DNA of 61,172 nt, from positions 1 through 61,172 of the forward strand of contig CALRAE010000003.1 of NCBI GenBank assembly GCA_943350445.1, given 5' to 3'. Origin of the DNA: Candidatus Nomurabacteria bacterium. Its GTDB lineage: Bacteria > Patescibacteriota > Minisyncoccia > Phycocordibacterales > UBA9973. Made by a program: the position numbers and the translations under genes. Below are positions 1 through 36,094 of the stretch, piece after piece. Within the stretch, counting starts at the first letter, position 1. Each line of letters starts with the position of its first letter. The notes below the pieces were generated by a model, which worked only from the letters and a program-made list of their open reading frames with translations, was not told where the DNA came from and did no database searches.

Positions 1-555
1 TGACAAATCAATACCTTGTTGTTTTGCAACTTTTGCTAATTCATAACTAGCCCACCAACCGTATAATTTTTTCCTTTCATCAATACTAATTAACTGATTT
101 TCTACTTGCCTTTCAGCTTTCGCACCAACAATTGGTTGTGTAACGCCCAACCCTTGTCTCAACTCCCCAATCCTTTTTTTATCAGCTTTTTGCCTTTCTT
201 CTTTTGCTAACTCTGTAGATTCTTTTTCTCGTAAAGAAGCAAGCACTCTCGCTTTTTTTTCCTTCTGAGCCTTCGTCTTTTCTGGATCAACATATTCAGG
301 AATTGTCCAAATAAAATCTAGGGTTTCAGAATCTAAACCCCTGTATTGAGGAGGAACTCCATTTGTCTCTTCTAGCACACCCTCATTAACTTCTGAATTT
401 TGTTCAGCAAGTCTTTTTTCAATACCGGACTTAAAAGAGGCTGGAAGGCCTTGAAAAATAGAATCTTCAGATTCTCCATTTCTGATACGATCGACATATT
501 CCTGAATCTTTTGCTCTCCGCCGACAAGAGGCTTAGTACTGTCTATGGATTTCAT
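1..555 (-). CDS. hypothetical protein, 5' part only (ORF continues past the window start)
   Basis: Own reverse-strand translation from the ATG (complement of 553-555) reads MKSIDSTKPLVGGEQKIQEYVDRIRNGESEDSIFQGL... and stays open to position 1. It is missing from the ORF track only because it is open-ended. No family recognised. Confidence 0.6.
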   Translation of the reverse strand, partial: MKSIDSTKPLVGGEQKIQEYVDRIRNGESEDSIFQGLPASFKSGIEKRLAEQNSEVNEGVLEETNGVPPQYRGLDSETLDFIWTIPEYVDPEKTKAQKEKKARVLASLREKESTELAKEERQKADKKRIGELRQGLGVTQPIVGAKAERQVENQLISIDERKKLYGWWASYELAKVAKQQGIDLS

Positions 556-563
556 ATTATTCC

Positions 564-1745
564 TTAATTATACCACTTCCCCAGTTTAGTCAAAATTTCG
601 GACAAAGCTTTGACTGTGTAATCGATATCTTGCTTAGTTGTTTCTCTGCCTAGTGAAAATCTTAAAGAGCCATCCTCATCTTTTATATTTTTATTGATTG
701 CCTGTATGACATAAGACACTTTGCCATCGCCGGATTTGCAGGCGCTTTTGGCTGAGGCCATGATGCCTCGCGCCGAGAGCTCAATAACCAAAAGATCGCT
801 CGGAATATTCGGAATAGTAATATTCACATTATTCGGCAATCTATTTTTCAAATCGCCATTTAAATCTATTCTATAATTCGTTAGAATTGTAGAATTGGTT
901 AATTTAGAGACAAAATAGTCACGAAGCTTAGTCAGGCGTTTTGTTTCTTTTTCTTTAATTTTTTGCGCAGATTTTAACGCGTGAGTAAATTTCAAAATCT
1001 CAAACAAATTTTCCGTCCCCGGACGCAATCCCATTTCTTGGTCTCCCCCGCCGAATACTTTTGCGAGCGGTACGGAACTTTTTTTGTAAAGCACGCCGAC
1101 TCTGCCCGCGCCTTCAATTTTTGAACCGGAAAGCGTTAGCATGTCCACTCCTAGTCTAGCCACATTCAAATCCAGATAATTCGCGGCCTGAACTGCGTCG
1201 GTGTGAAATACGGGGAACCTCTCCCAAGAGGTGAGGTGTGTTTTTTTATAGCGCCTAATTATTTTTGCGATTTCTTTTATCGGCTGGATCGTGCCGATTT
1301 CGTTGTTGGCATAATGCACTGAAACTAATATCGTATTTTTGTTTATTTCTTTCTCTATTTTTTTAGGGTTCACAATTCCGCTTTCCTCAACCGGAACAAT
1401 GGAAATTTTCGCGAGCTTCCTTTGCTCAAGCATTTTGAAAGTTTCCAAAACAGACGGATGCTCTATGTTTGTAGTTATGATATGAGGCAAATTAAACCCC
1501 TCCCCACCCCCTCCCCTTAATAAGGGGAGGGCTCCCTGAATTGCCAAATTGTTACTCTCAGTACCTCCGCTTGTAAAAATTATCTCCTGTGGCTGAGCAT
1601 ACAGCAAATTAGCAACCCCGCTACGAGCATTTTCCAGTTTAGAGCGAGCTTCTACTCCCAAAGTATGTATAGAACTAGGATTGGCGTTCACGCTTGCGGC
1701 ATAATCTAAGTATAAATTATGGGACTTTTTGGTTGATTTAACCAT
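564..1745 (-). CDS. cysteine desulfurase / class-V aminotransferase (NifS/IscS-like), copy 1
   Basis: 393 aa. It has a PLP-lysine region (LSGSKIEGAGRVGVLY) and an active-site Cys region (SAKSACKSGDG). Paralog of 6527..7690. Confidence 0.85.
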   Translation of the reverse strand: MVKSTKKSHNLYLDYAASVNANPSSIHTLGVEARSKLENARSGVANLLYAQPQEIIFTSGGTESNNLAIQGALPLLRGGGGEGFNLPHIITTNIEHPSVLETFKMLEQRKLAKISIVPVEESGIVNPKKIEKEINKNTILVSVHYANNEIGTIQPIKEIAKIIRRYKKTHLTSWERFPVFHTDAVQAANYLDLNVARLGVDMLTLSGSKIEGAGRVGVLYKKSSVPLAKVFGGGDQEMGLRPGTENLFEILKFTHALKSAQKIKEKETKRLTKLRDYFVSKLTNSTILTNYRIDLNGDLKNRLPNNVNITIPNIPSDLLVIELSARGIMASAKSACKSGDGKVSYVIQAINKNIKDEDGSLRFSLGRETTKQDIDYTVKALSEILTKLGKWYN

Positions 1746-1769
1746 AAAAATAGTATATATTATCTATCT

Positions 1770-2225
1770 ATGAATACAAAGCTTCAGATTGCTTTTTTTG
1801 TTGTAACCGGAATCGCCCTAGCGATGATTGCTATTTGGGCTATAGTCACGGAAAGGCGCCTGAAAAGATTTTTCCTAGGCAAAAAAGCGAAAGATTTAGA
1901 AGATACTATTGTTAGTTTAGAAAATCACATTATTCAGCTGAAAAAATCAAAAGAGAATATTGAAAAAGAAATGGCCGTGATAAACGCAAAGCTGAAGAAA
2001 AGCGTCCGCGGAGTAGAGACGATACGCTTCAATCCTTTCCCCGACCAAGGCAGCAACCAAAGCTTCGCCATCGGCATGCTGAATGAAGAAGGCGACGGCG
2101 TGGTATTTTCGAGTTTATATTCCCGCGACCGAATGAGCGTATTTGCCAAGCCGGTGAAAAATCATAAATCAGAATACGAACTTTCCGCCGAAGAAAAAGA
2201 TGCTTTAAATAGAGCAAAAGTATAA
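1770..2225 (+). CDS. DUF4446-like single-pass membrane protein, copy 1
   Basis: 151 aa with an N-terminal TM helix, a coiled-coil segment and the block RFNPFPDQGSNQSFA...VVFSSLYSR. The family name comes from memory of that motif. Confidence 0.6.
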   Translation: MNTKLQIAFFVVTGIALAMIAIWAIVTERRLKRFFLGKKAKDLEDTIVSLENHIIQLKKSKENIEKEMAVINAKLKKSVRGVETIRFNPFPDQGSNQSFAIGMLNEEGDGVVFSSLYSRDRMSVFAKPVKNHKSEYELSAEEKDALNRAKV

Positions 2226-3739
2226 TGCAAGAAAATAAAAATAATAAAATAACTTCTCGTCCGCCAGTAGTCGTCGTCATGGGACACATCGACCATGGCA
2301 AATCTACGCTTCTCGACTACATTCGAAAGACAAATGTGACGGATACGGAAGCAGGAGGCATAACTCAAAATATTTCCGCATATGAAGTAGTGCATAAAGA
2401 CGAGCACGGCAAAGACCAAAAAATTACTTTCCTCGACACTCCGGGCCACGAAGCCTTTTCTAAAATGCGGGAGCGCGGAGCGGTAATTGCCGATATTGCT
2501 ATCCTGGTGGTTTCAGCCGAGGACGGTGTGAAACCCCAAACAATTGAGGCTTGGAAAACGATAGTCGAAGCCGGGCTGCCTTCTATCGTCGCCATAAACA
2601 AGATAGACAAGCCGGGCGCGAATGTCGAAAAAACCAAACAAGAGCTCGCGGAAAATGAAATTTATCTGGAAAACTACGGAGGCAAAATACCATGCGCGGA
2701 AATTTCCGCCAAGACAGGAGCCGGAGTAGATGGCCTCTTATCGCTCATTTTGATTCTATCGGAAATGGAAAATTTCACTACCAGCATTGAAGAAGACGCA
2801 ACCGGCTTCGTCATAGAAGCAAACTTAGATTCTAAGCGCGGAATACAAGCGGCTCTAATTGTTAAAAATGGAACTATCGGCAAAGGAATGTTTGTGGTGG
2901 TGGAAAATACCATTTGCTCCACACGCATGATCCAAAATTTCAAAGGAGAAATGATCGAGAGCGCTTCCCCTTCCGCGCCGATACGACTTTGCGGTTTTGA
3001 TAAAATGCCCAGAGTCGGCGCTCCGTTCAAATCTTTTAAAAAGAAAAAAGAGGCTGAGGAATACATAAAAAAATTACCCCCTCGCTCCGACCTAGGTCGG
3101 AGCACTCCCCCTTCTCAAGGGGGGGAGGGTAGCAAAAAGATTATACCTATCATGCTCAAAGCCGACGTTTCCGGCAGTCTTGAAGCTATCGAAAAAGAAA
3201 TTGCTAAAATAAAAAACGAAGGAGCGGAATTTAAAATTATAGCGAAAAGCGTGGGTCCTATTTCCGAATCTGATATAAAAAATATCTCTAACAGCGAAAA
3301 CGCCATAATTATCGGATTCAACGTCAAAGCCGACAAAAGCGCTAGCGAAGTCGCAGAGAAGCGAGGCATAACCATCTCTTTCTTCGATATCATTTACAAA
3401 ATGACCGAGTGGCTCACGGTAGAGATGGAAGCGAGAAGGCCGAGGATAGAGACGGTAGAGACGACGGGAAAGGCGAAAATCATCCGGGCTTTCAGCCGCA
3501 CCAAAGAACGCCAGATCGTCGGCGGAAAAGTAGTCGAGGGACGCATGCTCCTAAATGGCACAGTTAAAATTATGCGCCGGGAATTTGAAATCGGGCGCGG
3601 GAAAATCGTAAACTTAGAGCAAGGCAAGGTCAAGACAAGCGAAGTTGCCGAAGGCCTAGAGTTCGGCATGATGGTCGAATCGAAAATAGAAATAGCGCCG
3701 GGCGACATTATTGAACTATTTTCCATAGCGCAAAAATAG
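2225..3739 (+). CDS. infB: translation initiation factor IF-2, short form, copy 1
   Basis: GTPase motifs GHIDHGKST, DTPGHEAF and NKID, with the C-terminal IF-2 domains. Only 504 aa, so the long N-terminal region is absent. Confidence 0.9.
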   Translation: MQENKNNKITSRPPVVVVMGHIDHGKSTLLDYIRKTNVTDTEAGGITQNISAYEVVHKDEHGKDQKITFLDTPGHEAFSKMRERGAVIADIAILVVSAEDGVKPQTIEAWKTIVEAGLPSIVAINKIDKPGANVEKTKQELAENEIYLENYGGKIPCAEISAKTGAGVDGLLSLILILSEMENFTTSIEEDATGFVIEANLDSKRGIQAALIVKNGTIGKGMFVVVENTICSTRMIQNFKGEMIESASPSAPIRLCGFDKMPRVGAPFKSFKKKKEAEEYIKKLPPRSDLGRSTPPSQGGEGSKKIIPIMLKADVSGSLEAIEKEIAKIKNEGAEFKIIAKSVGPISESDIKNISNSENAIIIGFNVKADKSASEVAEKRGITISFFDIIYKMTEWLTVEMEARRPRIETVETTGKAKIIRAFSRTKERQIVGGKVVEGRMLLNGTVKIMRREFEIGRGKIVNLEQGKVKTSEVAEGLEFGMMVESKIEIAPGDIIELFSIAQK

Positions 3740-3740
3740 C

Positions 3741-4073
3741 ATGAGCCAAGAGAATCAGCGAAAAGACAAAGTGGCAAATTATCTCAAAGAGCTAACCGCC
3801 GAATTTTTGGGGCGGGAAAATAATAGAACCTCGCTCATCACCGTGACGGGCGCCACCTGCTCCCCCGACCTGAAGCGCGCCACCATCTTCATCACCGTGC
3901 TGCCGACTGAAAAAGAATCTCTCGCCCTCGAATTCGCCAAGCGCAAAAGAGGCGAACTGCGCGAATTTTTCAAAAAGAAACTAGAAATAAAAACTATCCC
4001 CTTTATAGATATAGCCATAGACCTAGGAGAAAAACACCGCCAAAAAATTGACGAACTGCTACGAAATGGATAG
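3741..4073 (+). CDS. rbfA: ribosome-binding factor A, copy 1
   Basis: 110 aa lying directly after infB, the classic infB-rbfA order. RbfA-like core LITVT...SPDLK.A.I.I. Confidence 0.8.
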   Translation: MSQENQRKDKVANYLKELTAEFLGRENNRTSLITVTGATCSPDLKRATIFITVLPTEKESLALEFAKRKRGELREFFKKKLEIKTIPFIDIAIDLGEKHRQKIDELLRNG

Positions 4074-4092
4074 ACTTTAGGAAGTTTGTAAC

Positions 4093-4492: not shown

Positions 4493-6043
4493 TTATTTTT
4501 GGGCTATTGAGAATAATTCAATGACGTCTCCGGATGCGACTTCGATTTTGGATTCGATCATCATGCCGAACTCCAGACCCTCCTCAACCACGCTGGTTTT
4601 CGCTTTGGCTTGTTCTAGGTTGACGATCTTCCCACGGCCGATCTCGAACTCTCGGCGCATTATTTTAACTGTACCGTTTAAGAGCATACGTCCTTCGGTC
4701 ACTTTACCACCTATGATCTGGCGTTCCTTTGTTCGACTAAAAGCTCGAATTATTTTTGCTTTACCTGTGGTCTCTACTGTCTCCACCCTAGGGCGCCTTT
4801 GCTCCATTTGTTCTTCTAGGAATTCAGTCATTTTATAAATAATATCAAAGAAAGAAATTGTGATCCCACGTTTTTCTGCCATTTCGATTGCACTCTTGTC
4901 TGCCTTCACATTGAACCCGATAATTATGGCAGCTTCACTGTTTGAAATATTTTTTATATCAGATTCAGAAATTGGACCTACGCCCTTACTGATGATTCTA
5001 AATTCTGCGTTATCGTTTGCTTTTCCATCAACCCCTTTACATTTTATTTTGGCGATTTCTTTTTCTATTGCTTCAATAGATCCAGAGACATCCGCTTTTA
5101 ATAATATTGGGATTATTTTCTTATCAGCTTTTTTTTCAGAAGTTTTTATATCGGATTTATTTTTTTCACCCTTTTGATTCTGCTCAATTTTCCAACTTTC
5201 CGCGTATTCCTGAGCACCCTTTTTGTTTTTGAAAGTCTTAAACATTGCTCCCACTTTTGGCAATTTATCAAAACCACATAGACGTATGGGTGTTGAAGGG
5301 GAGGCACTATCTACCGTTACTCCTTTAAAGTTTTGTATCATGCGTGTAGAGCAGATGCTGTCTTCGACAATTACAGTCATGCCTTTTGTGATTGTTCCAT
5401 TTTTTATGATAAGAGTGGCTTGTATTCCGCGTTTAGAATCAAGTTCTGCTTCGATGACAAAACCCGATGCATCTTCACCCGTATTTTCGGTGAAATTTTC
5501 CATTTCAGCTAAAATCAAAATTAATGATAACAGACTATCTACCCCAGTTCCTATTTTTGCAGAAATTTCTACGAAAGGGGTTTTGCCTCCATAATTTTCT
5601 AAATATATTTCATTCTCTGCAAGGGTTTGTTTTGTCTTTTCAATATTCGCGCCGGGCTTATCTATCTTGTTTATAGCAACAATTACTGGTAGCTTGGCTT
5701 CCACAATTGTTTTCCATGCCTCAACTGTCTGTGGCTTTACGCCATCTTCAGCAGAGACCACAAGAATAGCGATATCTGCAACGATTGCGCCACGTTCTCG
5801 CATTTTTGAGAAAGCTTCGTGCCCTGGGGTATCAAGGAAAGTTATTTTCTGATCTTCCCCTTTCTCATTTTTGTGAAGTACTTCATAAGCAGATATGCTT
5901 TGGGTGATACCACCAGCCTCACCATCAACTACGTTTGTTTTGCGGATATAGTCTAAAAGCGTAGACTTGCCATGGTCAATATGACCCATGACTACTACGA
6001 CTGGTGGACGAGGAGTGATTTTGTTTTCTTTGTTTTTTTGCAT
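4493..6043 (-). CDS. infB: translation initiation factor IF-2, short form, copy 2
   Basis: 516 aa with the same GTPase motifs as copy 1. It differs from copy 1 mainly by indels in the linker after domain II. Confidence 0.9.
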   Translation of the reverse strand: MQKNKENKITPRPPVVVVMGHIDHGKSTLLDYIRKTNVVDGEAGGITQSISAYEVLHKNEKGEDQKITFLDTPGHEAFSKMRERGAIVADIAILVVSAEDGVKPQTVEAWKTIVEAKLPVIVAINKIDKPGANIEKTKQTLAENEIYLENYGGKTPFVEISAKIGTGVDSLLSLILILAEMENFTENTGEDASGFVIEAELDSKRGIQATLIIKNGTITKGMTVIVEDSICSTRMIQNFKGVTVDSASPSTPIRLCGFDKLPKVGAMFKTFKNKKGAQEYAESWKIEQNQKGEKNKSDIKTSEKKADKKIIPILLKADVSGSIEAIEKEIAKIKCKGVDGKANDNAEFRIISKGVGPISESDIKNISNSEAAIIIGFNVKADKSAIEMAEKRGITISFFDIIYKMTEFLEEQMEQRRPRVETVETTGKAKIIRAFSRTKERQIIGGKVTEGRMLLNGTVKIMRREFEIGRGKIVNLEQAKAKTSVVEEGLEFGMMIESKIEVASGDVIELFSIAQK

Positions 6044-6502
6044 TTATTTTACTTCTGCTTTCTTTAATGCTTCTTTTTCTTCCGCACTCAATTCGTATTC
6101 TGATTTATTATTTTTAATGGGTTTTGCAAAGATACTCATGCGTTCACGAGAATATAGACTTGAGAATACCACTCCGTCACCATCTTCATTTAATATCCCA
6201 ACTGCAAAACTTTGGTTACTACCCTGATCAGGGAATGGGTTGAAGCGGATGGTCTCTAACCCACGGATACTTTTTTTCAACTTTGCATTTATAGTTGTGA
6301 TGTCTTTTTCGATATTATTCTTTGCTTTTTTGAGTTCAGTGATATTGTTTTCTAAAATAGTGATGGTGTCTTCTAGATCCTTCGCTTTTTTACCTAAAAA
6401 GAATCTTTTCAATCGTCTCTCTGTCACAATCATCCAAATAGCGCCCATGATTATGGCAATGCCTCCTAAAACAAAAAAAGCCAGTTCGAGCTTTGTATTC
6501 AT
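6044..6502 (-). CDS. DUF4446-like single-pass membrane protein, copy 2
   Basis: 152 aa, homologous along its full length to 1770..2225. Confidence 0.6.
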   Translation of the reverse strand: MNTKLELAFFVLGGIAIIMGAIWMIVTERRLKRFFLGKKAKDLEDTITILENNITELKKAKNNIEKDITTINAKLKKSIRGLETIRFNPFPDQGSNQSFAVGILNEDGDGVVFSSLYSRERMSIFAKPIKNNKSEYELSAEEKEALKKAEVK

Positions 6503-6526
6503 ACCGCTATAATATATACTATTTTT

Positions 6527-7690
6527 GTGGCTAAATCAAATAAAAGCTCAATAAATAAAGCACGGAAAATATACATGGATCATGCCTCCAGTGCTCTTTC
6601 TGCCTCTGCTAACCCTGGGTCTATTCATGAGTTGGGTGTAAAAGAGAAAAATACATTAGAAAGCGCTAGGGGTATAGTGGCAGATATTTTAAATGCTCAC
6701 AGTAAGGAAATTATTTTCACCTCTGGGGCAACAGAAAGCAACAATTTGGCTATTTTGGGTTTGATTAATGCGGTGAATCGTTTATTTTTACCGCACATTG
6801 TGACTACCAACATTGAACACTCATCAGTTTTAGAAGTTTGTAAACATTTAGAAAAAACAAAACAAGTGGAAGTGACTTATGTGTCGGTGGAGGGTAGTGG
6901 TATTGTCGATCCAGAAAAAATTAAAAAAGCTCTCAAGCCAAACACTGTCTTGGTTTCTGTAATGTATGCAAATAATGAAATAGGAACGGTGCAACCAATT
7001 CGGGAAATTGCAAAAGAAATTCGGCATCATAATAAAAATCTTGAAAGTAAGGTTTTTTTTCACACTGACGCAGTTCAAGCAGTAAACTATCTGCCGGTTA
7101 ATGTTGCCCAGCTGGGAGTGGATATGATGTCTATCAATAGCGCTAAAATATATGGTCCAAAAGGAGTAGGGGTTTTGTATGTAAAGAAAGGCACACTCAT
7201 TAGCCCTATTATGTTTGGCGGTGATCAAGAGTTTAGTCTAAGACCAGGCACAGAGAATGTGGCTTTAGCTATTGGTCTCGCAAAAGCTCTAGAGACTACT
7301 GAAAAAATGAAAGAAATTGAGGTGAAGCGATTAACAAAATTTCGGGATTATTTTTTTAAGAAATTATCTAAAATAAAAAATATTAAATTTACAATTAATG
7401 GTGATCTGGAAAAAAGGTTAGCAAATAATATAAACATAACTATTCCAAATATTCCGAGCGATCTTTTAGTCATTGAACTTTCAGCACGTGGGGTGATGGC
7501 ATCTGCGAAGAGTGCTTGCAAGGCAGGGGATGGTAAAGCTTCACATGTTATAGAAGCTATACACCCCAACGTAAAAGAAACTGATGGGTCTTTGAGGTTT
7601 TCTGTAGGAAGAGAAACCACAAAAGCTGATATTGACTATACTATTAAAGCTTTATCTCATATTTTATCCAAGCTAGAAAAGTGGTATTGA
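6527..7690 (+). CDS. cysteine desulfurase / class-V aminotransferase, copy 2 (GTG start)
   Basis: 387 aa with a PLP-Lys region (NSAKIYGPKGVGVLY) and SAKSACKAGDG. Paralog of 564..1745. Confidence 0.85.
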   Translation: MAKSNKSSINKARKIYMDHASSALSASANPGSIHELGVKEKNTLESARGIVADILNAHSKEIIFTSGATESNNLAILGLINAVNRLFLPHIVTTNIEHSSVLEVCKHLEKTKQVEVTYVSVEGSGIVDPEKIKKALKPNTVLVSVMYANNEIGTVQPIREIAKEIRHHNKNLESKVFFHTDAVQAVNYLPVNVAQLGVDMMSINSAKIYGPKGVGVLYVKKGTLISPIMFGGDQEFSLRPGTENVALAIGLAKALETTEKMKEIEVKRLTKFRDYFFKKLSKIKNIKFTINGDLEKRLANNINITIPNIPSDLLVIELSARGVMASAKSACKAGDGKASHVIEAIHPNVKETDGSLRFSVGRETTKADIDYTIKALSHILSKLEKWY

Positions 7691-8098: not shown

Positions 8099-8140
8099 CT
8101 TTTGATTTTGACTAAATAAAAAAGATGCTATAATCGAGTT

Positions 8141-8950
8141 ATGGACATCAAGGATCTAAACAAACCACAATTGATCCTACTCGCGGTACTTTTGAGTTTT
8201 GTGACTTCTATCGCGACGGGTATAACAACAGTTACGTTGATGCAACAAGCACCAAAGTCCTTTACTGCACCTATAAACCGTGTCGTTCAACAAACAATTG
8301 AGAAAATACAACAAGTCGAAGGTAAGACCACAGTCCAAACAGTGATTGTGAAAGAAGAGGACTTGGTGGTAGATGCTATTGCGAAAAACAAATCAGTGAC
8401 ATTTACTATTACCAAGGAAGTTTTAGATGCAGAAGGAAAAAATGTTGAAGTTTCTGTCGGTAAAGGTTTTGCAGTAAATGCTGATGGCACTATCGTCGTG
8501 GATGGTAATCTAATTTCAGAGAAACAAGTATATTATGTAAAAAATGAGAGTGGTAAATTTAAGGCAGATTATGTTTCTACAGACAAGGCTGGCTTTTCTT
8601 TTGTAAAAATAGGGGCTGCGGTAAATGGCACAGACAAGCTTGTGGTCACAGTGCCTATCTTCGGAGATTTGGAGAAAATGAAAATAGGTCAAAAGATTTT
8701 AGTGTTGGGCAACACTATCGCTGCATCTATTTTTGAGGGGAACAAAAATCTGAATGTGAGTATCACAAAAGGTAGTGCAGGAGGGGTAGTACTCAATCTA
8801 GACGGGGAAGTCATAGGTATTGCTTTGTTTGGAGATGGCGCGAACTTCGCTTCGATCAATAGTATAAATAGTGCTTTAAAACCTTCTCTCGATCCTGCGA
8901 CCAGTATGACTGCATCTCCAGTACTTGCACCAGCTACTTCTACACCATAG
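8141..8950 (+). CDS. membrane-anchored trypsin-like (HtrA/S1C-type) domain protein, probably non-catalytic
   Basis: N-terminal TM helix. S1C-like blocks GKGFAV..DGTIVV and GSAGGVVLNLDGEVIGIA, but the triad positions are substituted (see findings). No PDZ domain. Confidence 0.6.
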   Translation: MDIKDLNKPQLILLAVLLSFVTSIATGITTVTLMQQAPKSFTAPINRVVQQTIEKIQQVEGKTTVQTVIVKEEDLVVDAIAKNKSVTFTITKEVLDAEGKNVEVSVGKGFAVNADGTIVVDGNLISEKQVYYVKNESGKFKADYVSTDKAGFSFVKIGAAVNGTDKLVVTVPIFGDLEKMKIGQKILVLGNTIAASIFEGNKNLNVSITKGSAGGVVLNLDGEVIGIALFGDGANFASINSINSALKPSLDPATSMTASPVLAPATSTP

Positions 8951-9001
8951 ATAATGTTGTGCTTGACAGGTAGTGTATAATGAAAAAATAAACAAAAATA
9001 T

Positions 9002-11707
9002 ATGCCACCATTAAATAAATTTACAACCAAAGCCAAAGATGCCATCAAGAGAGCTCATGAGCTCGCTATTGAGCGTGGAGTGAACCATGTTTCCTCAGTG
9101 CATTTGCTCGCAGCGCTACTCATCCAAGAAGAGAGTATGGTGAATTCAATTTTAGATAAATTGGAAATAGACACGATGCTCCTTACTGACTCTGTTTTGG
9201 AATTAATAGAATTACCAGAGACTCACACCACTCTTTCTCCTTCATATCAGATATATCTCAATCCAGATCTTGCCCAAGTAATAGAACAATCAGCCAAAAT
9301 AGCGGAGTCCATGAAAGATGACTTTGTTTCTACTGAGCATCTATTCATAGCTATACTAGAAGTGACTTCTGAGGCACGTGAGACTTTAGCACGATTTAGA
9401 ATCCACAAAGACTCAGTTGTGAAAGTAATCGAAGAACTTCGCAGCCAAAATATCACTGATGTAACAGAACCAAAGAAATTTAAATTAATTTTGAAATACA
9501 CTCGCAATCTGACAAAGCTAGCCAAGGAAGACAAACTCGACCCAGTTATCGGCCGTGATAGTGAAATCATGCGCATCATGCAAATTCTTTCAAGAAGGAC
9601 CAAAAATAATCCAATTCTCATCGGTGAAGCGGGTACAGGCAAGACAGCGGTGGTGGAAGGACTCGCACAAATGATCGTAAAGAATAATGTTCCAGAATCT
9701 TTAAAAGACAAAGAGCTTGTGTCGCTTGATTTAGGGCTACTTGTCGCTGGTACCAAGTATCGTGGAGAGTTTGAAGAGAGATTGAAAGGCATCATGAAGG
9801 AAATTGAACGTTCAGATGGTAAGGTTATTATCTTTATCGATGAGATACACACCATCGTCGGTGCTGGCGGTGCTGAGGGCTCAATGGATGCTTCAAACAT
9901 GTTGAAGCCTGCTCTTTCTCGTGGAGAACTCCGAGCTATTGGTGCGACGACTTTACGAGAATATCAAAAACACATAGAGAAAGACCCAGCGCTGGCTAGA
10001 CGCTTTCAGCCTGTATATATAGATGAGCCTAATATTGAAGACGCTGTGGCTATACTTCGTGGACTAAAAGAAAAGTATGAACTTTTCCATGGTGTGCGTA
10101 TTACAGATGACGCCATCGTATCTGCGGTCAATCTTTCTGCTCGATATATCACAAACAGATTCTTGCCAGACAAGGCGGTGGACTTGATAGACGAAGCTTC
10201 TTCTTCACTCAAGATAATGTTGGAAAATAAACCACCTATTCTAGAAGATGCACATAGGAAAATAATGCGTTTAGAAATTGAAAAAGAAGCTCTAAAAAAA
10301 GAGATATCTAGTTTGGCTGGGGAGGTAAGTAAAGAAGATAAAGAAAAACAAAAAGAATTAAAAAATAGAATCAAAGAGGTGGATAGTGAAATAGGCAATT
10401 TGCATGAAAAAACAAAAGAGCTCGAATTAAAGTGGCAAAATGAAAAGACAATTGTGGTAGAGATACGTGCTATCAAAAAAGATCTAGAAAGTCTGCGTCT
10501 GGAGGCTGAGAACGCTGAGATGAAGTCGGATTTGTCTCGCGCGGCAGAGATACGCTACGGTAAAATTCCAAATCTAAAAAAAGAACTTGAAACCAAACTT
10601 TCACGATTAAAGAAACTACAAAAATCACGCCGAATTTTAAAAGAAGAGATTACTGCTGAAGACATCGCTGAGGTTGTTGCGCGTTGGACTGGTATACCAC
10701 TCACCAAGATGCTCGAAGAAGAACGTGCAAAACTTGAGAAGATGGAATCAGAATTGAGCAAGAGGGTGATGGGTCAAGATGAGGCCATCAAGCGCGTGTC
10801 AGACGTCATCCGACGTTCTCGTGCTGGTATTTCTGATCCGAATAGACCTATCGGCTCTTTCATCTTCCTTGGTCCGACCGGTGTCGGTAAGACTGAGCTT
10901 ACAAAGGCCCTTTCTGCTTTTATGTTCAACGATGATCGTGCGATTATCCGTGTCGATATGTCTGAATATATGGAAAAGCATTCGATCTCAAAACTTGTCG
11001 GTTCTCCACCTGGATATGTCGGTTATGATGAAGCAGGACAACTCACAGAGGCTGTCCGACATCGCCCCTATGCAGTTATACTTTTCGATGAGATAGAAAA
11101 AGCTCATCCCGATGTCTTCAATATGCTTTTGTCTGTGATTGATGAAGGTAGACTAACTGATGGAAAGGGAAGAGTGGTGAATTTTAAAAATACCATCATC
11201 ATTCTCACTTCCAACATTGGTTCACAATTTGTAGAAAAGATGGAATCAATCGGGTTCTCTAATAATTCCAAAAAAGACGATTACAACAACATGAAAGATA
11301 AAGTGATGGAAGCGTTGAAAGACAATTTTCGTCCAGAGTTTTTGAATCGTTTGGATGAGACTATTGTCTTTGATGTGTTGAGTGAACAAGCAATAGGTGA
11401 GATAGTTAAGTTGAGGGTACAAGTGGTCAAAGACCGCTTGGCCGGTAAAGGTATTGGTTTTGAGATTTCTATGGAGGCCTTGGTGTACTTGGCAAAAGAG
11501 GGTTACAATCCGCATTATGGTGCAAGACCACTGAACCGTTTGATTCAAAATAAAATCCTAAATCCCGTGGCTTCTTATATTATTTCAAATGGTGTGAAGA
11601 AAGGGGACATGGTGAACGTGACTGTAAAGAACAACGAGCTTGTTATCGAAAAGAAAAGAGAAAAGGTAAAAAGCTCTATTCAAATGAGGACTAAGGAGGG
11701 GGTGTAG
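9002..11707 (+). CDS. clpB: ATP-dependent chaperone ClpB
   Basis: 901 aa with a Clp N domain, two AAA+ modules ([16 protein letters not shown]) and a long coiled-coil middle domain. Confidence 0.95.
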
Positions 11708-13354: not shown

Positions 13355-13391
13355 GCTTATTTTAGAAATAAGGTTTTGGGTGAAATTAAAG

Positions 13392-13422
13392 ACCAGCACC
13401 GTCTCCGAGAGAGGGTGCTGGT
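13392..13422. terminator. hairpin between convergent units (bidirectional terminator candidate)
   Basis: The stem accagcacc (13392-13400) pairs with ggtgctggt (13414-13422). T-rich runs lie on both sides when each strand is read. Confidence 0.55.
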
Positions 13423-13441
13423 TCTTTGATGTTGGTGGGGC

Positions 13442-13636
13442 TTAGCAGCCCATGGTCGTGGCACCCGCATAGGGGTGCTTGGAGTGAGACCAGCGTGAGC
13501 TTACTGACAGCTTATGCATTTTTGGTCCTTGTCCGAACCCGATGATTTGATCCAGGGCGGATCTTTTCCTTCTCGACTTCCTGCTATTGTTCACGCGAAG
13601 TGCATCTTGCGTGGTCTGGTCTTCCTTTGATGCCAT
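13442..13636 (-). CDS. possible small basic protein (64 aa); coding status uncertain
   Basis: The ATG at 13636 is preceded by GAGGAA 9 nt upstream. The sequence is MASKEDQTTQDALRVNNSRKSRRKRS.... The segment is GC-rich and no family was recognised. Confidence 0.25.
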   Translation of the reverse strand: MASKEDQTTQDALRVNNSRKSRRKRSALDQIIGFGQGPKMHKLSVSSRWSHSKHPYAGATTMGC

Positions 13637-13720
13637 ATGTGTTGGTTCCTCTACTTTCATTGATCTACTTTAAAGATCGCAAGCACACTCCATGTTGCTG
13701 TGCTTGTTCTTCAAGAGGGT

Positions 13721-13748
13721 ATTGTATTGACTTTGGGTTCTTTGTCAA
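13721..13748 (-). promoter_or_regulatory. sigma70-like promoter on the minus strand (TTGACA, 16-nt spacer, TACAAT)
   Basis: The reverse complement reads TTGACAaagaacccaaagtcaaTACAAT. Confidence 0.5.
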
Positions 13749-13784
13749 GTCGAACGTAATATACCAATAGCTTGGAATCACTCA

Positions 13785-13967
13785 CTATTTAAATAGTTCG
13801 AAGAACTTTACGGGATCAATCGCAATATTGTTGATGCGAATACCTAGATGCAGATGCGCGCCGAGCGTGTATCCAGTTTGCCCGCTTAACCCTATGACTT
13901 GGCCCACCTTCACCACATCGCCGACTTTTACTTTAATTTTAGACAAATGCAAATAAAAACTCATCAT
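13785..13967 (-). pseudogene. C-terminal remnant of an M23 (LytM-type) metallopeptidase
   Basis: Only 60 aa remain (...YLHLSKIKVKVGDVVKVGQVIGLSGQTGYTLGAHLHLGIR...), covering the HLH motif half. An in-frame stop lies 7 codons upstream, and the HxxxD half is absent. Confidence 0.6.
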
Positions 13968-14203
13968 TCCGAGCCCATGCTTCCGTCATTTAGCTCTGCC
14001 GCTAATTCGTAAGTTCCTACTTTTTTATTCAAAACGAGAGAAAGGTAGCGTCTCCTTAGCTTTGTTGTAATAAATTGTTTGTATTATAATAAAGAGATGT
14101 ATTGATCCGAATACTGAATTGGCAATACTAGACTAGTATTTAAATTAAATTAAATATATACTAGAATAGGAATGCGATAGATCGTGTATTTTTATTACGT
14201 AAT

Positions 14204-15742
14204 ATGAAAAATAATAATTTTCAAAAAATAAAGATGTTTCTTTTAATAAATAAGAAAACAGTAATTTTCTTATTTATTATACTCGGAGGTATCTCTTTCT
14301 TTATTTTTCGTTCGCCTGAGTCTAATGTGGTAAACATTGATTCTGTAAAATATGTCGACTTGTCTAAGTCTGTGCGAGCTACTGGGCAAGTTATTTCCAA
14401 TATTGACCTAGACCTATCTTTCAACAAGGCGAGTGTCGTCAAATCCATAAAGGTAAATGTGGGGGATGTGGTTAAGGTTGGACAAATTTTAGCGAATCTT
14501 GATCAGGGTCAGGTTTTTGCAAAATTAACAGAGGCTAGGGCGGGGTTACTCGGTGCGCAAGCTAAATACAATAAAACCCTAGAAGGTGCTTCTGGTGAAG
14601 AAGTGGCTTTGGCAAAGGTAGCATTAGATAATGCAAAGATAGATTTAGAAAATACCAAAAACAATCAAGAGACGATAGTTCAGAGTGCATACCAGGCTGT
14701 ACTCAATTCTTATATTGCAGCACTTTCTACTTCTGCGTCAGACACCCAGTCTGCTCCGACCATAAGTGGCACATATGCTCTAGGTAAAGAAGGAGAGATC
14801 AGGGTGTCTGTCGCACAGGGTGGTTCAAATGGCTATTTTAGTGCGTTTGGTTTGCTTATTTATTTGGGTACTGTTAGTAATACTAATCCGCAACCGATTG
14901 GAAACTCTGGTTTATATATTTTATTTCCCTCAAATTTTTCATCTCAAAATGAATGGGTTATTAGTATCCCAAACAAAAAGGCAACAAATTATCTAACCAA
15001 TTATAATGCCTATCAAAATGCTCTGCAGGCTAAAACAAGTGCTATTGGTGTCGCTCAATCTACTCTCAACCAAAAACAAGCTGAATATAATTTGAAAATA
15101 TCTGTCGCGCGAAGTGTGGACCTAGATATAGCAAAAGCAGAAGTTTTATCAGCCGAAGGGTCTCTGCAGTTAGCTCAGTCTTCTTATGAAGACACAATAA
15201 TCCGTGCGGGAGCTCCCGGGACTATTACAAAAGTAGACATAAAATATGGAGAATTGTCTCAAGCTGGTAAGTCCGTGATCACTCTACAAGATGTGGAGAA
15301 TCTGTATATAGAGGCTCTGATTAATGAAGCCAATATTGCATATCTAAAAGATGGACAAAGTGTGGCAATAACTTTCGATGCTTTTGGTCGCGATAAAAAG
15401 TTTAGCGGAGTAATAGCCCACATCGATCCATCAGCAGATACCGATAATGGAGTGGTGAATTATAAAATAAAAGTTTCTCTAACTGAAAACAATCTGACGA
15501 TCCGTCCAGGGATGAATGCTAATATTGATGTCCTCGCTGGGGGGGTACAAAATGTTTTAGCAATACCAAATATTTTTGTTATCAAGAGAGATAGTAAATC
15601 TTTTGTGAATGTAATTATCGATGAAAAAAAGAAAAGTTATGCTGAGCAGGAAGTGAAGACTGGATTCATAGGAGACAATAATCTGGTTGAGATAATCTCT
15701 GGCTTATCTAAGGATGAAAAGATCGCTCTCTTAAAGGACTAA
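14204..15742 (+). CDS. HlyD/MacA-type periplasmic adaptor (membrane fusion protein)
   Basis: 512 aa with an N-terminal TM helix, a lipoyl-like segment (VGDVVKVGQILANLD), long coiled coils and a beta-barrel C-terminus. It precedes an FtsX permease and an ABC ATPase. Confidence 0.75.
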   Translation: MKNNNFQKIKMFLLINKKTVIFLFIILGGISFFIFRSPESNVVNIDSVKYVDLSKSVRATGQVISNIDLDLSFNKASVVKSIKVNVGDVVKVGQILANLDQGQVFAKLTEARAGLLGAQAKYNKTLEGASGEEVALAKVALDNAKIDLENTKNNQETIVQSAYQAVLNSYIAALSTSASDTQSAPTISGTYALGKEGEIRVSVAQGGSNGYFSAFGLLIYLGTVSNTNPQPIGNSGLYILFPSNFSSQNEWVISIPNKKATNYLTNYNAYQNALQAKTSAIGVAQSTLNQKQAEYNLKISVARSVDLDIAKAEVLSAEGSLQLAQSSYEDTIIRAGAPGTITKVDIKYGELSQAGKSVITLQDVENLYIEALINEANIAYLKDGQSVAITFDAFGRDKKFSGVIAHIDPSADTDNGVVNYKIKVSLTENNLTIRPGMNANIDVLAGGVQNVLAIPNIFVIKRDSKSFVNVIIDEKKKSYAEQEVKTGFIGDNNLVEIISGLSKDEKIALLKD

Positions 15743-36050: not shown

Positions 36051-36094
36051 TTTTTGATTATACCTTTTTTATTATTATTTGGTATAATGTTGAA

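Follow-up and report, generated by a model that had tools for sequence, protein, structure and literature searches.

How are two genes that face away from each other started when only 24 nt separate their start codons? The question is raised by a locus in DNA from a Candidatus Nomurabacteria bacterium (GenBank assembly GCA_943350445.1, contig CALRAE010000003.1, positions 1 to 61,172); this whole stretch of 61,172 nt was analyzed and is called the window here.

Organization of the divergent locus

The spacer, at 1746-1769, lies between a NifS/IscS-like gene on the minus strand and the DUF4446-infB-rbfA genes on the plus strand, and its sequence consists of the successive hexamers AAAAAT, AGTATA, TATTAT and CTATCT. 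Direct reading of the sequence confirmed the length and the coordinates given by the first-pass annotation, both here and in a mirrored copy of the locus; the two copies are referred to as arm 1 and arm 2. The genes around the spacer of arm 1 are the following.

564-1745, minus strand: NifS/IscS-like class-V aminotransferase of the cysteine desulfurase family (Pfam Aminotran_5, E = 1.7e-56), hereafter the desulfurase
1743-1745, minus strand: ATG start codon of the desulfurase (CAT on the plus strand), conserved in relatives, with the probable transcription start on the A at 1745
1770-2225, plus strand: DUF4446 gene, first in the DUF4446-infB-rbfA operon (PF14584, E = 2.4e-36, match from residue 8)
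2225-4073, plus strand: infB and rbfA, the downstream genes of the operon (TIGR00487; Pfam RBFA match)

The NCBIfam NifS/IscS models also match the gene at 564-1745, but under their cutoffs. The infB gene (2225-3739) encodes a short IF-2 of 504 amino acids that TIGR00487 recognizes with 457 bits, above its cutoff, and the DUF4446 stop and the infB start overlap as TAATG. IF-2 is short in both arms (504 amino acids in arm 1; 516 amino acids, at 4493-6043, in arm 2), the TIGR00487 match beginning at model position 77. Homologues of the DUF4446 protein carry the annotations Candidatus Nomurabacteria, Paceibacterota or Patescibacteria. For both divergent genes, in-frame stops rule out upstream starts at canonical codons. 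The spacer itself contains no RNA family, the Rfam scan of the whole window yielding tRNAs only, and a Pfam search with the partial ORF at window positions 1-555 gave no family.

Two opposed -10 boxes share two base pairs

Promoter elements were located within the spacer and in the first codons of both genes.

1733-1738, plus strand: -35 box of DUF4446, TTGATT, within codons 3-5 of the divergent desulfurase gene (AAA TCA A)
1746-1751, minus strand: segment ATTTTT, 6 nt from the desulfurase -10 box to its ATG, lying also in the 17-bp spacer of the opposite promoter
1752-1757, minus strand: desulfurase -10 box, TATACT, 6 nt from the ATG, seen in about 65 of 80 relatives
1756-1761, plus strand: conserved -10 box of DUF4446, TATATT, 8 nt from the ATG
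1758-1763, plus strand: hexamer TATTAT, 6 nt from the DUF4446 ATG, a lineage-specific alternative -10 box present in both arms of the window
1762-1769, plus strand: 8-nt segment from the conserved -10 box to the DUF4446 ATG, ATCTATCT here and GAAAnYRY in relatives
1775-1780, minus strand: candidate weak -35 box of the desulfurase, TTTGTA, 17 bp from TATACT and within DUF4446 codons 2-4, placed by geometry only

A promoter scan run on both arms called TTGATT-17-TATATT, with a 9/12 match, and the DUF4446 promoter thus has the sigma-70-type arrangement of a -35 box and a -10 box separated by 16-18 bp. The opposed boxes TATATT (plus strand) and TATACT (minus strand) have the TA at 1756-1757 in common. 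Such overlapping -10 hexamers on opposite strands, occupying 1752-1761 and also 6511-6520 in arm 2, are conserved in about 65 species.

None of the Shine-Dalgarno (SD) tetramers GGAG, GAGG and AGGA occurs within the 24-nt spacer. Both genes display the leaderless signature, which consists of a -10 box at a distance of 6-8 nt from the start and the lack of an SD: TATACT-6-ATG/GTG for the desulfurase and TATATT-8-ATG for DUF4446. The earlier statement that the spacer leaves no room for a leader or an SD is supported; on the desulfurase side, with 6 nt between TATACT and the ATG, the geometry is canonical for a leaderless gene. The same annotation had placed each -35 region inside the coding sequence of the neighbour. 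This holds for DUF4446, whose TTGATT is found at 17 bp in 65 species, while the desulfurase candidate TTTGTA is weak, matching at 3/6 positions in a place where the promoter scan makes no call. The bases at this site are conserved also in loci whose promoters do not overlap, and TTTGTA can be assigned as a -35 box only tentatively. A further candidate for the -35 or upstream region of the desulfurase, the sequence AAAGCT at DUF4446 codons 4-5, was dropped as proof because its bases stay conserved even in loci without an overlapping desulfurase promoter, the distance to the desulfurase start being about 100 nt there. The Lys codon of this AAAGCT is AAG, which accounts for only 27% of the Lys codons in the window.

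The promoter block is conserved across species

In relatives, one genome per species was scanned with a DUF4446 alignment, giving 80 loci. TATATT-N8-ATG precedes DUF4446 in 72 of these 80 species-level loci, and a TTGnnn hexamer is found exactly 17 bp upstream of TATATT in all 72 (TTGATT in 65, TTGCTA in 5 and TTGCCA in 2). The whole block, TTGATTTnnnCATAAAAATAGTATATATT, is nearly invariant in about 65 loci whose flanking coding DNA has freely diverged; they read tTTGATTT-nnn-CAT-AAAAATAGTATATATT-GAAAnnnn-ATG and keep the 24-nt spacer to the desulfurase start. In 67 loci for which per-position values were obtained, conservation is 92-100% at 1733-1739 and 1747-1761, with TTGATTT at 100% and the adjacent coding DNA nearly free of constraint: the desulfurase coding sequence upstream of 1733 holds less than 1 bit per position and the second codon carries almost no information. 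In the same 67 loci the segment 1746-1751 is conserved at 79-100% and GAAA (1762-1765) at 73-85%.

In DNA of this composition hexamers of the -10 type can arise by chance, the pattern TANNNT falling at 2.2% of positions and the promoter scan finding about 0.9 promoter-like sites per 300 nt of shuffled sequence. Chance matches in AT-rich intergenic DNA would not be held nearly invariant in 65-72 species-level genomes next to coding DNA that diverges freely, and the probability left to them is negligible; we regard this explanation as refuted.

The conservation among relatives also decides which box serves DUF4446. The first-pass annotation had proposed two abutting boxes, TATACT and TATTAT, each 6 nt from its start codon. 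The former stands, whereas TATTAT is found in only 10 of 72 relatives: TATATT is followed by AT in 10/72 (~14%) and by GA in 57/72, most relatives reading TATATTGA at the positions where the window has TATTAT (1758-1763). TATTAT is therefore a minority variant that both arms of the window happen to carry, and the picture of abutting boxes is particular to this lineage.

According to the first-pass annotation, conservation is higher in the spacer than in coding DNA, and a check across related genomes was suggested. Across 65-72 related species this holds strongly; between the two arms the difference is modest, 79% against 59-74%.

Seven loci, those with TTGCTA or TTGCCA, have recognizably different upstream DNA, and the spacer is about 100 nt long in five of the seven, the ones in which a minus-strand neighbour ORF was found. 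All seven still hold TTGCYA-17-TATATT-8-ATG. Retention of this arrangement in front of different upstream DNA indicates that the elements constitute the promoter of DUF4446.

The near-invariance of AAAAAT (1746-1751) and of GAAA exceeds what the hexamers need, which implies some additional constraint. The block might then be mainly a dedicated transcription factor site that co-regulates the desulfurase and the infB operon. Conservation does reach past the hexamers (AAAAAT 79-100%, GAAA 73-85%), and the core AGTATATATT is an 8/10 dyad. In the consensus of the relatives, however, the dyad ends at the 10 bp that the overlapping -10 boxes themselves create. No regulator gene is linked to the locus, and elsewhere in the 61-kb window the block is absent: apart from the arms themselves, a search for further copies returned just a pair of unrelated near-matches to a 12-mer. 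Moreover, in the seven loci whose upstream DNA differs, the left half of the block is lost and the spacing of the -35 and -10 boxes is kept. We therefore consider it unlikely that the block is mainly such a site. The two readings can coexist, an extra regulator site at the block being possible but unsupported.

The -35 box is written into the desulfurase N-terminus

Read on the opposite strand, TTGATT(T) corresponds to codons 3-5 of the desulfurase, and in 65 relatives the enzyme always begins M-x-K-S. The Lys is always AAA and the Ser always TCA, a codon that makes up only 21% of the Ser codons in the window. The presence of the -35 box inside the coding sequence freezes codons 3-5 and gives rise to the invariant M-x-K-S; the constraint acts on the DNA and not on the protein.

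The start codon of the desulfurase is conserved in the same 65 relatives, being ATG in 58 and GTG in 7. The frame is open in 58 of the 65, and 47 of the 65 have no alternative start ahead of the IYLDYA motif. Between M-x-K-S and IYLDYA (window 1700-1742) lies a Lys/Arg-rich linker of 0 to ~18 residues, whose in-frame length varies freely between species. Both the open frame and the fact that changes of linker length are kept in frame support the assigned start. In public gene calls the arm-2 desulfurase (6813-7928 of contig L007 and 1340-2455 of contig L008) has 371 amino acids and begins at the ATG at window 6575. This call is probably 16 residues short, the conserved start being the GTG at 6527, which gives 387 amino acids; public calls for this enzyme are sometimes truncated in this way (371 versus 387 amino acids), leaderless GTG starts apparently not being expected by gene finders.

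Signature of leaderless starts across the window

Long ORFs represent 56 genes in the window. In 14 of these a hexamer matching TATAAT at 5/6 or more of its bases is separated from the start codon by exactly 6 nt, while 0.59 would be expected per position (P ~1e-15). When the four focal genes are left out, 10 of 52 retain a TATAAT-like box at a gap of 6 (P ~2e-10), and 7 of those 10 non-focal genes also carry the TGn extended -10 motif. A scan of the window that makes no use of gene calls likewise peaks at gap 6, with 26 cases versus about 8 at other gaps, so that the 6-nt gap of the desulfurase -10 box coincides with the peak of the entire window. Examples with gap 6 start at 8141, 12379, 24507, 28443, 36050 (minus strand), 36095, 36405, 46289 and 49879. 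The same gene-call-free scan applied to the 80 related loci gave peaks at gaps 6 and 7, which were not used as statistics because the loci are homologous and not independent.

SD sequences are not enriched in the window, SD-like 4-mers occurring in 4 of 56 upstream regions versus a background of 8.9%. The internal genes of operons have A-rich upstream regions or overlapping stop and start codons, also without SD. A Pribnow box located 6-8 nt from the start is the bacterial signature of leaderless genes, as described for group C of GeneMarkS-2 (PMC6028130), and this pattern is found before first-gene starts across the window. As in group C, which comprises Actinobacteria and Deinococcus-Thermus, the box precedes the ATG or GTG of first genes by 6-8 nt, with the window peak at 6 nt; internal genes differ, those of group C keeping an RBS (PMC6028130) while those of the window also lack an SD. 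The host lineage belongs to the low-GC Patescibacteria/Nomurabacteria. In a literature search of limited reach on leaderless use in Patescibacteria, candidate phyla radiation bacteria, Nomurabacteria and Saccharibacteria nothing of substance was found, and the papers retrieved do not describe the host lineage as leaderless-rich. Taken together, leaderless expression appears to be a habit of this organism.

Several other start regions of the window and of its relatives were recorded. In the scan of related loci, the 270-amino-acid gene was seen to have a conserved leaderless promoter as well, TGGTATAAT-N6-ATG. In the window a gene of 269/270 amino acids with a weak Trypsin_2 match, adjacent to the desulfurase, is preceded by TG(G/C)TATAAT-N6-ATG (8120-8143), and several relatives have a similar TG(G/C)TATAAT-N6-ATG at roughly the same place (minus strand, 300-440 of loci L011-L019). 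A second divergent pair consists of a 1085-amino-acid gene (minus strand) and a 100-amino-acid gene (plus strand) separated by 44 nt (36051-36094). It has perfect TATAAT boxes at 36057-36062 (minus strand) and 36083-36088 (plus strand), each 6 nt from its ATG and 20 bp apart from one another, and represents a non-overlapping version of the design seen in the focal spacer.

An opposite arrangement would have the genes leadered: their promoters would lie farther upstream, within the adjacent coding sequences, and the spacer would be conserved for its AT-richness as an unstructured, non-SD landing site for the ribosome. Some leadered initiation without SD must exist in the organism, given the absence of SD and the A-rich regions upstream of internal operon genes. 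In the case of clpB (9002-11707), TATAAT is found 20 nt upstream of the ATG and the presumed leader is rich in A and free of SD (window 8975-9004); among first operon genes, clpB seems to be exceptional in having a leader, though no SD. Nevertheless, a landing site requires neither an invariant TTGATT 17 bp from TATATT nor a TANNNT at a fixed distance of 6 or 8 nt; the sharp peak at gap 6 throughout the window is the signature of a promoter and not of ribosome binding; and TTGCYA-17-TATATT is retained in loci with unrelated upstream DNA. Leadered transcripts are consequently a very unlikely explanation of the spacer.

The mirrored copy and the contig junction

The layout of the spacer recurs in inverse orientation in arm 2.

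6503-6526: second copy of the spacer, with TATATT at 6511-6516 (minus strand) and TATACT at 6515-6520 (plus strand) sharing a TA
6534-6539, minus strand: -35 box TTGATT of arm 2, called by the promoter scan as TTGATT-17-TATATT
4058-4088: junction of 31 nt, unique to the window contig, between arm 1 (to 4057) and arm 2 (matched by contig L007 from 4089)

The arm-2 spacer consists of ACCGCT, ATAATA, TATACT and ATTTTT, followed by the GTG at 6527. It is flanked by the second DUF4446 gene (6044-6502, minus strand, ATG at 6500-6502) and by the second Aminotran_5 gene (6527-7690, GTG start). The spacers of the two arms are identical at 19 of 24 positions, with a perfect run of 18 nt (1746-1763). Only two exact runs in the 3.6-kb alignment of the arms are longer, the identity per gene being otherwise 59-74%.

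The gene order of the window contig is palindromic and peculiar to it: desulfurase-DUF4446-infB-rbfA, tRNA-Cys, rbfA-infB-DUF4446-desulfurase. Four independent contigs (L003-L006) match arm 1 (window 1-4057) with 99.98-100% identity, and each of them leaves the window sequence or ends exactly at 4057. Two further contigs, L001 (98.3% identity to arm 1) and L002 (99.6%), have their own 270-amino-acid gene and clpB outside the desulfurase, that is, the synteny of arm 2. The 81-kb MAG contig L007 matches, with 99.99% identity, arm 2 and the DNA on its right, running from window position 14502 down to 4089; past arm 2 it continues with tRNA-Leu, tRNA-Lys and unrelated genes, and it contains no arm 1. 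The genes of arm 1 have a GC3 of 0.42-0.54, as compared with 0.33 +/- 0.04 for the remaining window.

Each arm thus occurs alone in independent contigs and with clpB-flanked synteny, which makes the arms look orthologous. The same join, as would be expected of an inverted duplication within one genome, was not encountered in independent assemblies. The junction at 4058-4088 has no exact match in JGI metagenome contigs, a weak negative as these may lack the sample, and an exact-protein look-up of the rbfA variant made by the junction returned no record from collections that may lack it too. The mirrored copy with identical layout described by the first-pass annotation is real at 6503-6526, but a second copy within one genome is improbable: to judge from these contigs, arm 2 is probably the orthologous locus of a second, co-occurring Nomurabacteria genome, joined in a chimeric contig. 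As to the origin of the join, mis-assembly is the likelier cause and strain-specific acquisition of a second infB-rbfA set the less likely one. If the arms come from two genomes, their comparison is one between species, and the finding on the spacer is not weakened.

Two further stretches were noted. A region of about 850 nt (window 13355-14203) contains no ORF of at least 80 codons and no Rfam match; within it, CTAGTATATATT at 14153 (minus strand) resembles the core of the focal spacer. In L001, which represents a genome of the arm-1 type, a perfect DnaA-box-like 9-mer, TTATCCACA, at ~8575-8590 is found just past the tRNA-Cys that follows rbfA; it is single and could be due to chance.

Model of a two-way leaderless promoter

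Taking into account that: (i) the opposed -10 boxes overlap and lie 6 and 8 nt from their start codons; (ii) the block is kept while the surrounding coding DNA diverges, and (iii) box spacing of this kind is found throughout a window without SD enrichment, we propose that the spacer and ~12 bp of each gene form one compact sigma-70-type promoter that works in both directions, the transcripts being leaderless or nearly so. We consider this model likely. Start sites, two-way activity and mutual exclusion are the parts that we infer from the arrangement of the elements.

In the model, TTGATT (1733-1738), the 17-bp spacer and TATATT (1756-1761) would drive transcription of DUF4446-infB-rbfA on the plus strand, with the first transcribed base at 1770, where the ATG begins, or 2 nt earlier (1768). 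Positions 6, 7 and 8 past TATATT, which directly precede the ATG, are Y (83%), R (86%) and Y (100%) in 72 loci, and this Y-R-Y points either to a start at position 7, which would leave a leader of 2 nt, or to one on the first base of the ATG; DUF4446 mRNA may accordingly have a leader of 0-2 nt. On the minus strand, TATACT (1757-1752), 6 nt before the ATG, would direct the start to the A at 1745. A canonical start 7 nt past TATACT falls on the first base of the ATG, an A with a T on either side, and the desulfurase mRNA would then be truly leaderless. By geometry, the divergent start sites would be 23 bp (1745/1768) to 25 bp (1745/1770) apart. A single RNA polymerase would cover the whole element and hence could be loaded in only one direction at any time. 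Both mRNAs, leaderless or nearly so, would be translated without SD, as is predicted for most first operon genes of the organism.

Comparison with known divergent promoters

Bidirectional promoters that arise from the symmetry of the -10 element have been described in E. coli and other bacteria. Their two start sites are separated by 7-25 bp, distances of 18, 10 and 23 bp being favoured, and a polymerase bound in one orientation excludes binding in the other (bioRxiv 10.1101/2020.01.31.928960; PMC12825309). In these Warman/Grainger promoters, as in the focal spacer, the -10 hexamers share bases (AGTA[TA]TATT) and the implied starts are ~23-25 bp apart; the first TA, shared by both hexamers, would correspond to the 23-bp configuration of the symmetric promoters. 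Common to them and to our model are also a -35 region for each direction, represented on the desulfurase side by the weak candidate TTTGTA, and a polymerase whose binding in one direction bars the other. On the other hand, in the focal spacer both transcripts are predicted to be leaderless, so that the promoter would leave no intergenic DNA to spare and its -35 regions would fall within genes. The focal element, for which two-way activity is predicted, is also clade-wide in candidate phyla radiation bacteria, whereas weakness or recent acquisition is common among the promoters known from E. coli.

The literature consulted on divergent leaderless pairs was uninformative. Divergent promoter regions with one gene on a leaderless mRNA are those of phage lambda PRM/cI and of tetR-tetA in Tn1721/Tn10, the leaderless genes being cI and tetR. 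They differ from the focal spacer in that their starts are much further apart or have well-defined operators, and in that only one side is leaderless. The focal element clearly exemplifies, in unusually compact form, mechanisms that are known from other bacteria.

Implications for gene expression in Nomurabacteria

A bolder interpretation makes the invariant element of ~45 bp a hard-wired either/or switch, and leaderless, SD-independent initiation the default of Nomurabacteria, perhaps of many Patescibacteria. We hold it to be speculative and rather improbable. If true, the switch would set the ratio of cysteine desulfurase, whose sulfur would go into Fe-S clusters or the thiolation of tRNA, to the IF2-RbfA operon of translation initiation; it would possibly be read by a regulator or through a lineage-specific preference of RNA polymerase or sigma for the extended AAAATAGTATATATTGAAA block.

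Candidate phyla radiation bacteria have small ribosomes and, as far as the window can show, make no use of SD sequences. The arrangement of the start regions suggests that leaderless mRNAs may be a normal mode of expression in these bacteria, and that the operon of initiation factor IF2 may itself be leaderless. The locus offers a deeply conserved test case, defined by its sequence, of how transcription and translation would start in uncultured members of this group, and it illustrates how promoter elements may constrain a protein, the -35 box fixing the N-terminal M-x-K-S of the enzyme. As soon as genetics is feasible in candidate phyla radiation bacteria, the element could be put to use as a bidirectional promoter of minimal size. 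Its value lies in its compactness and conservation, in coding DNA that doubles as a -35 box, and in the insight that it may provide into gene expression in an uncultured phylum.
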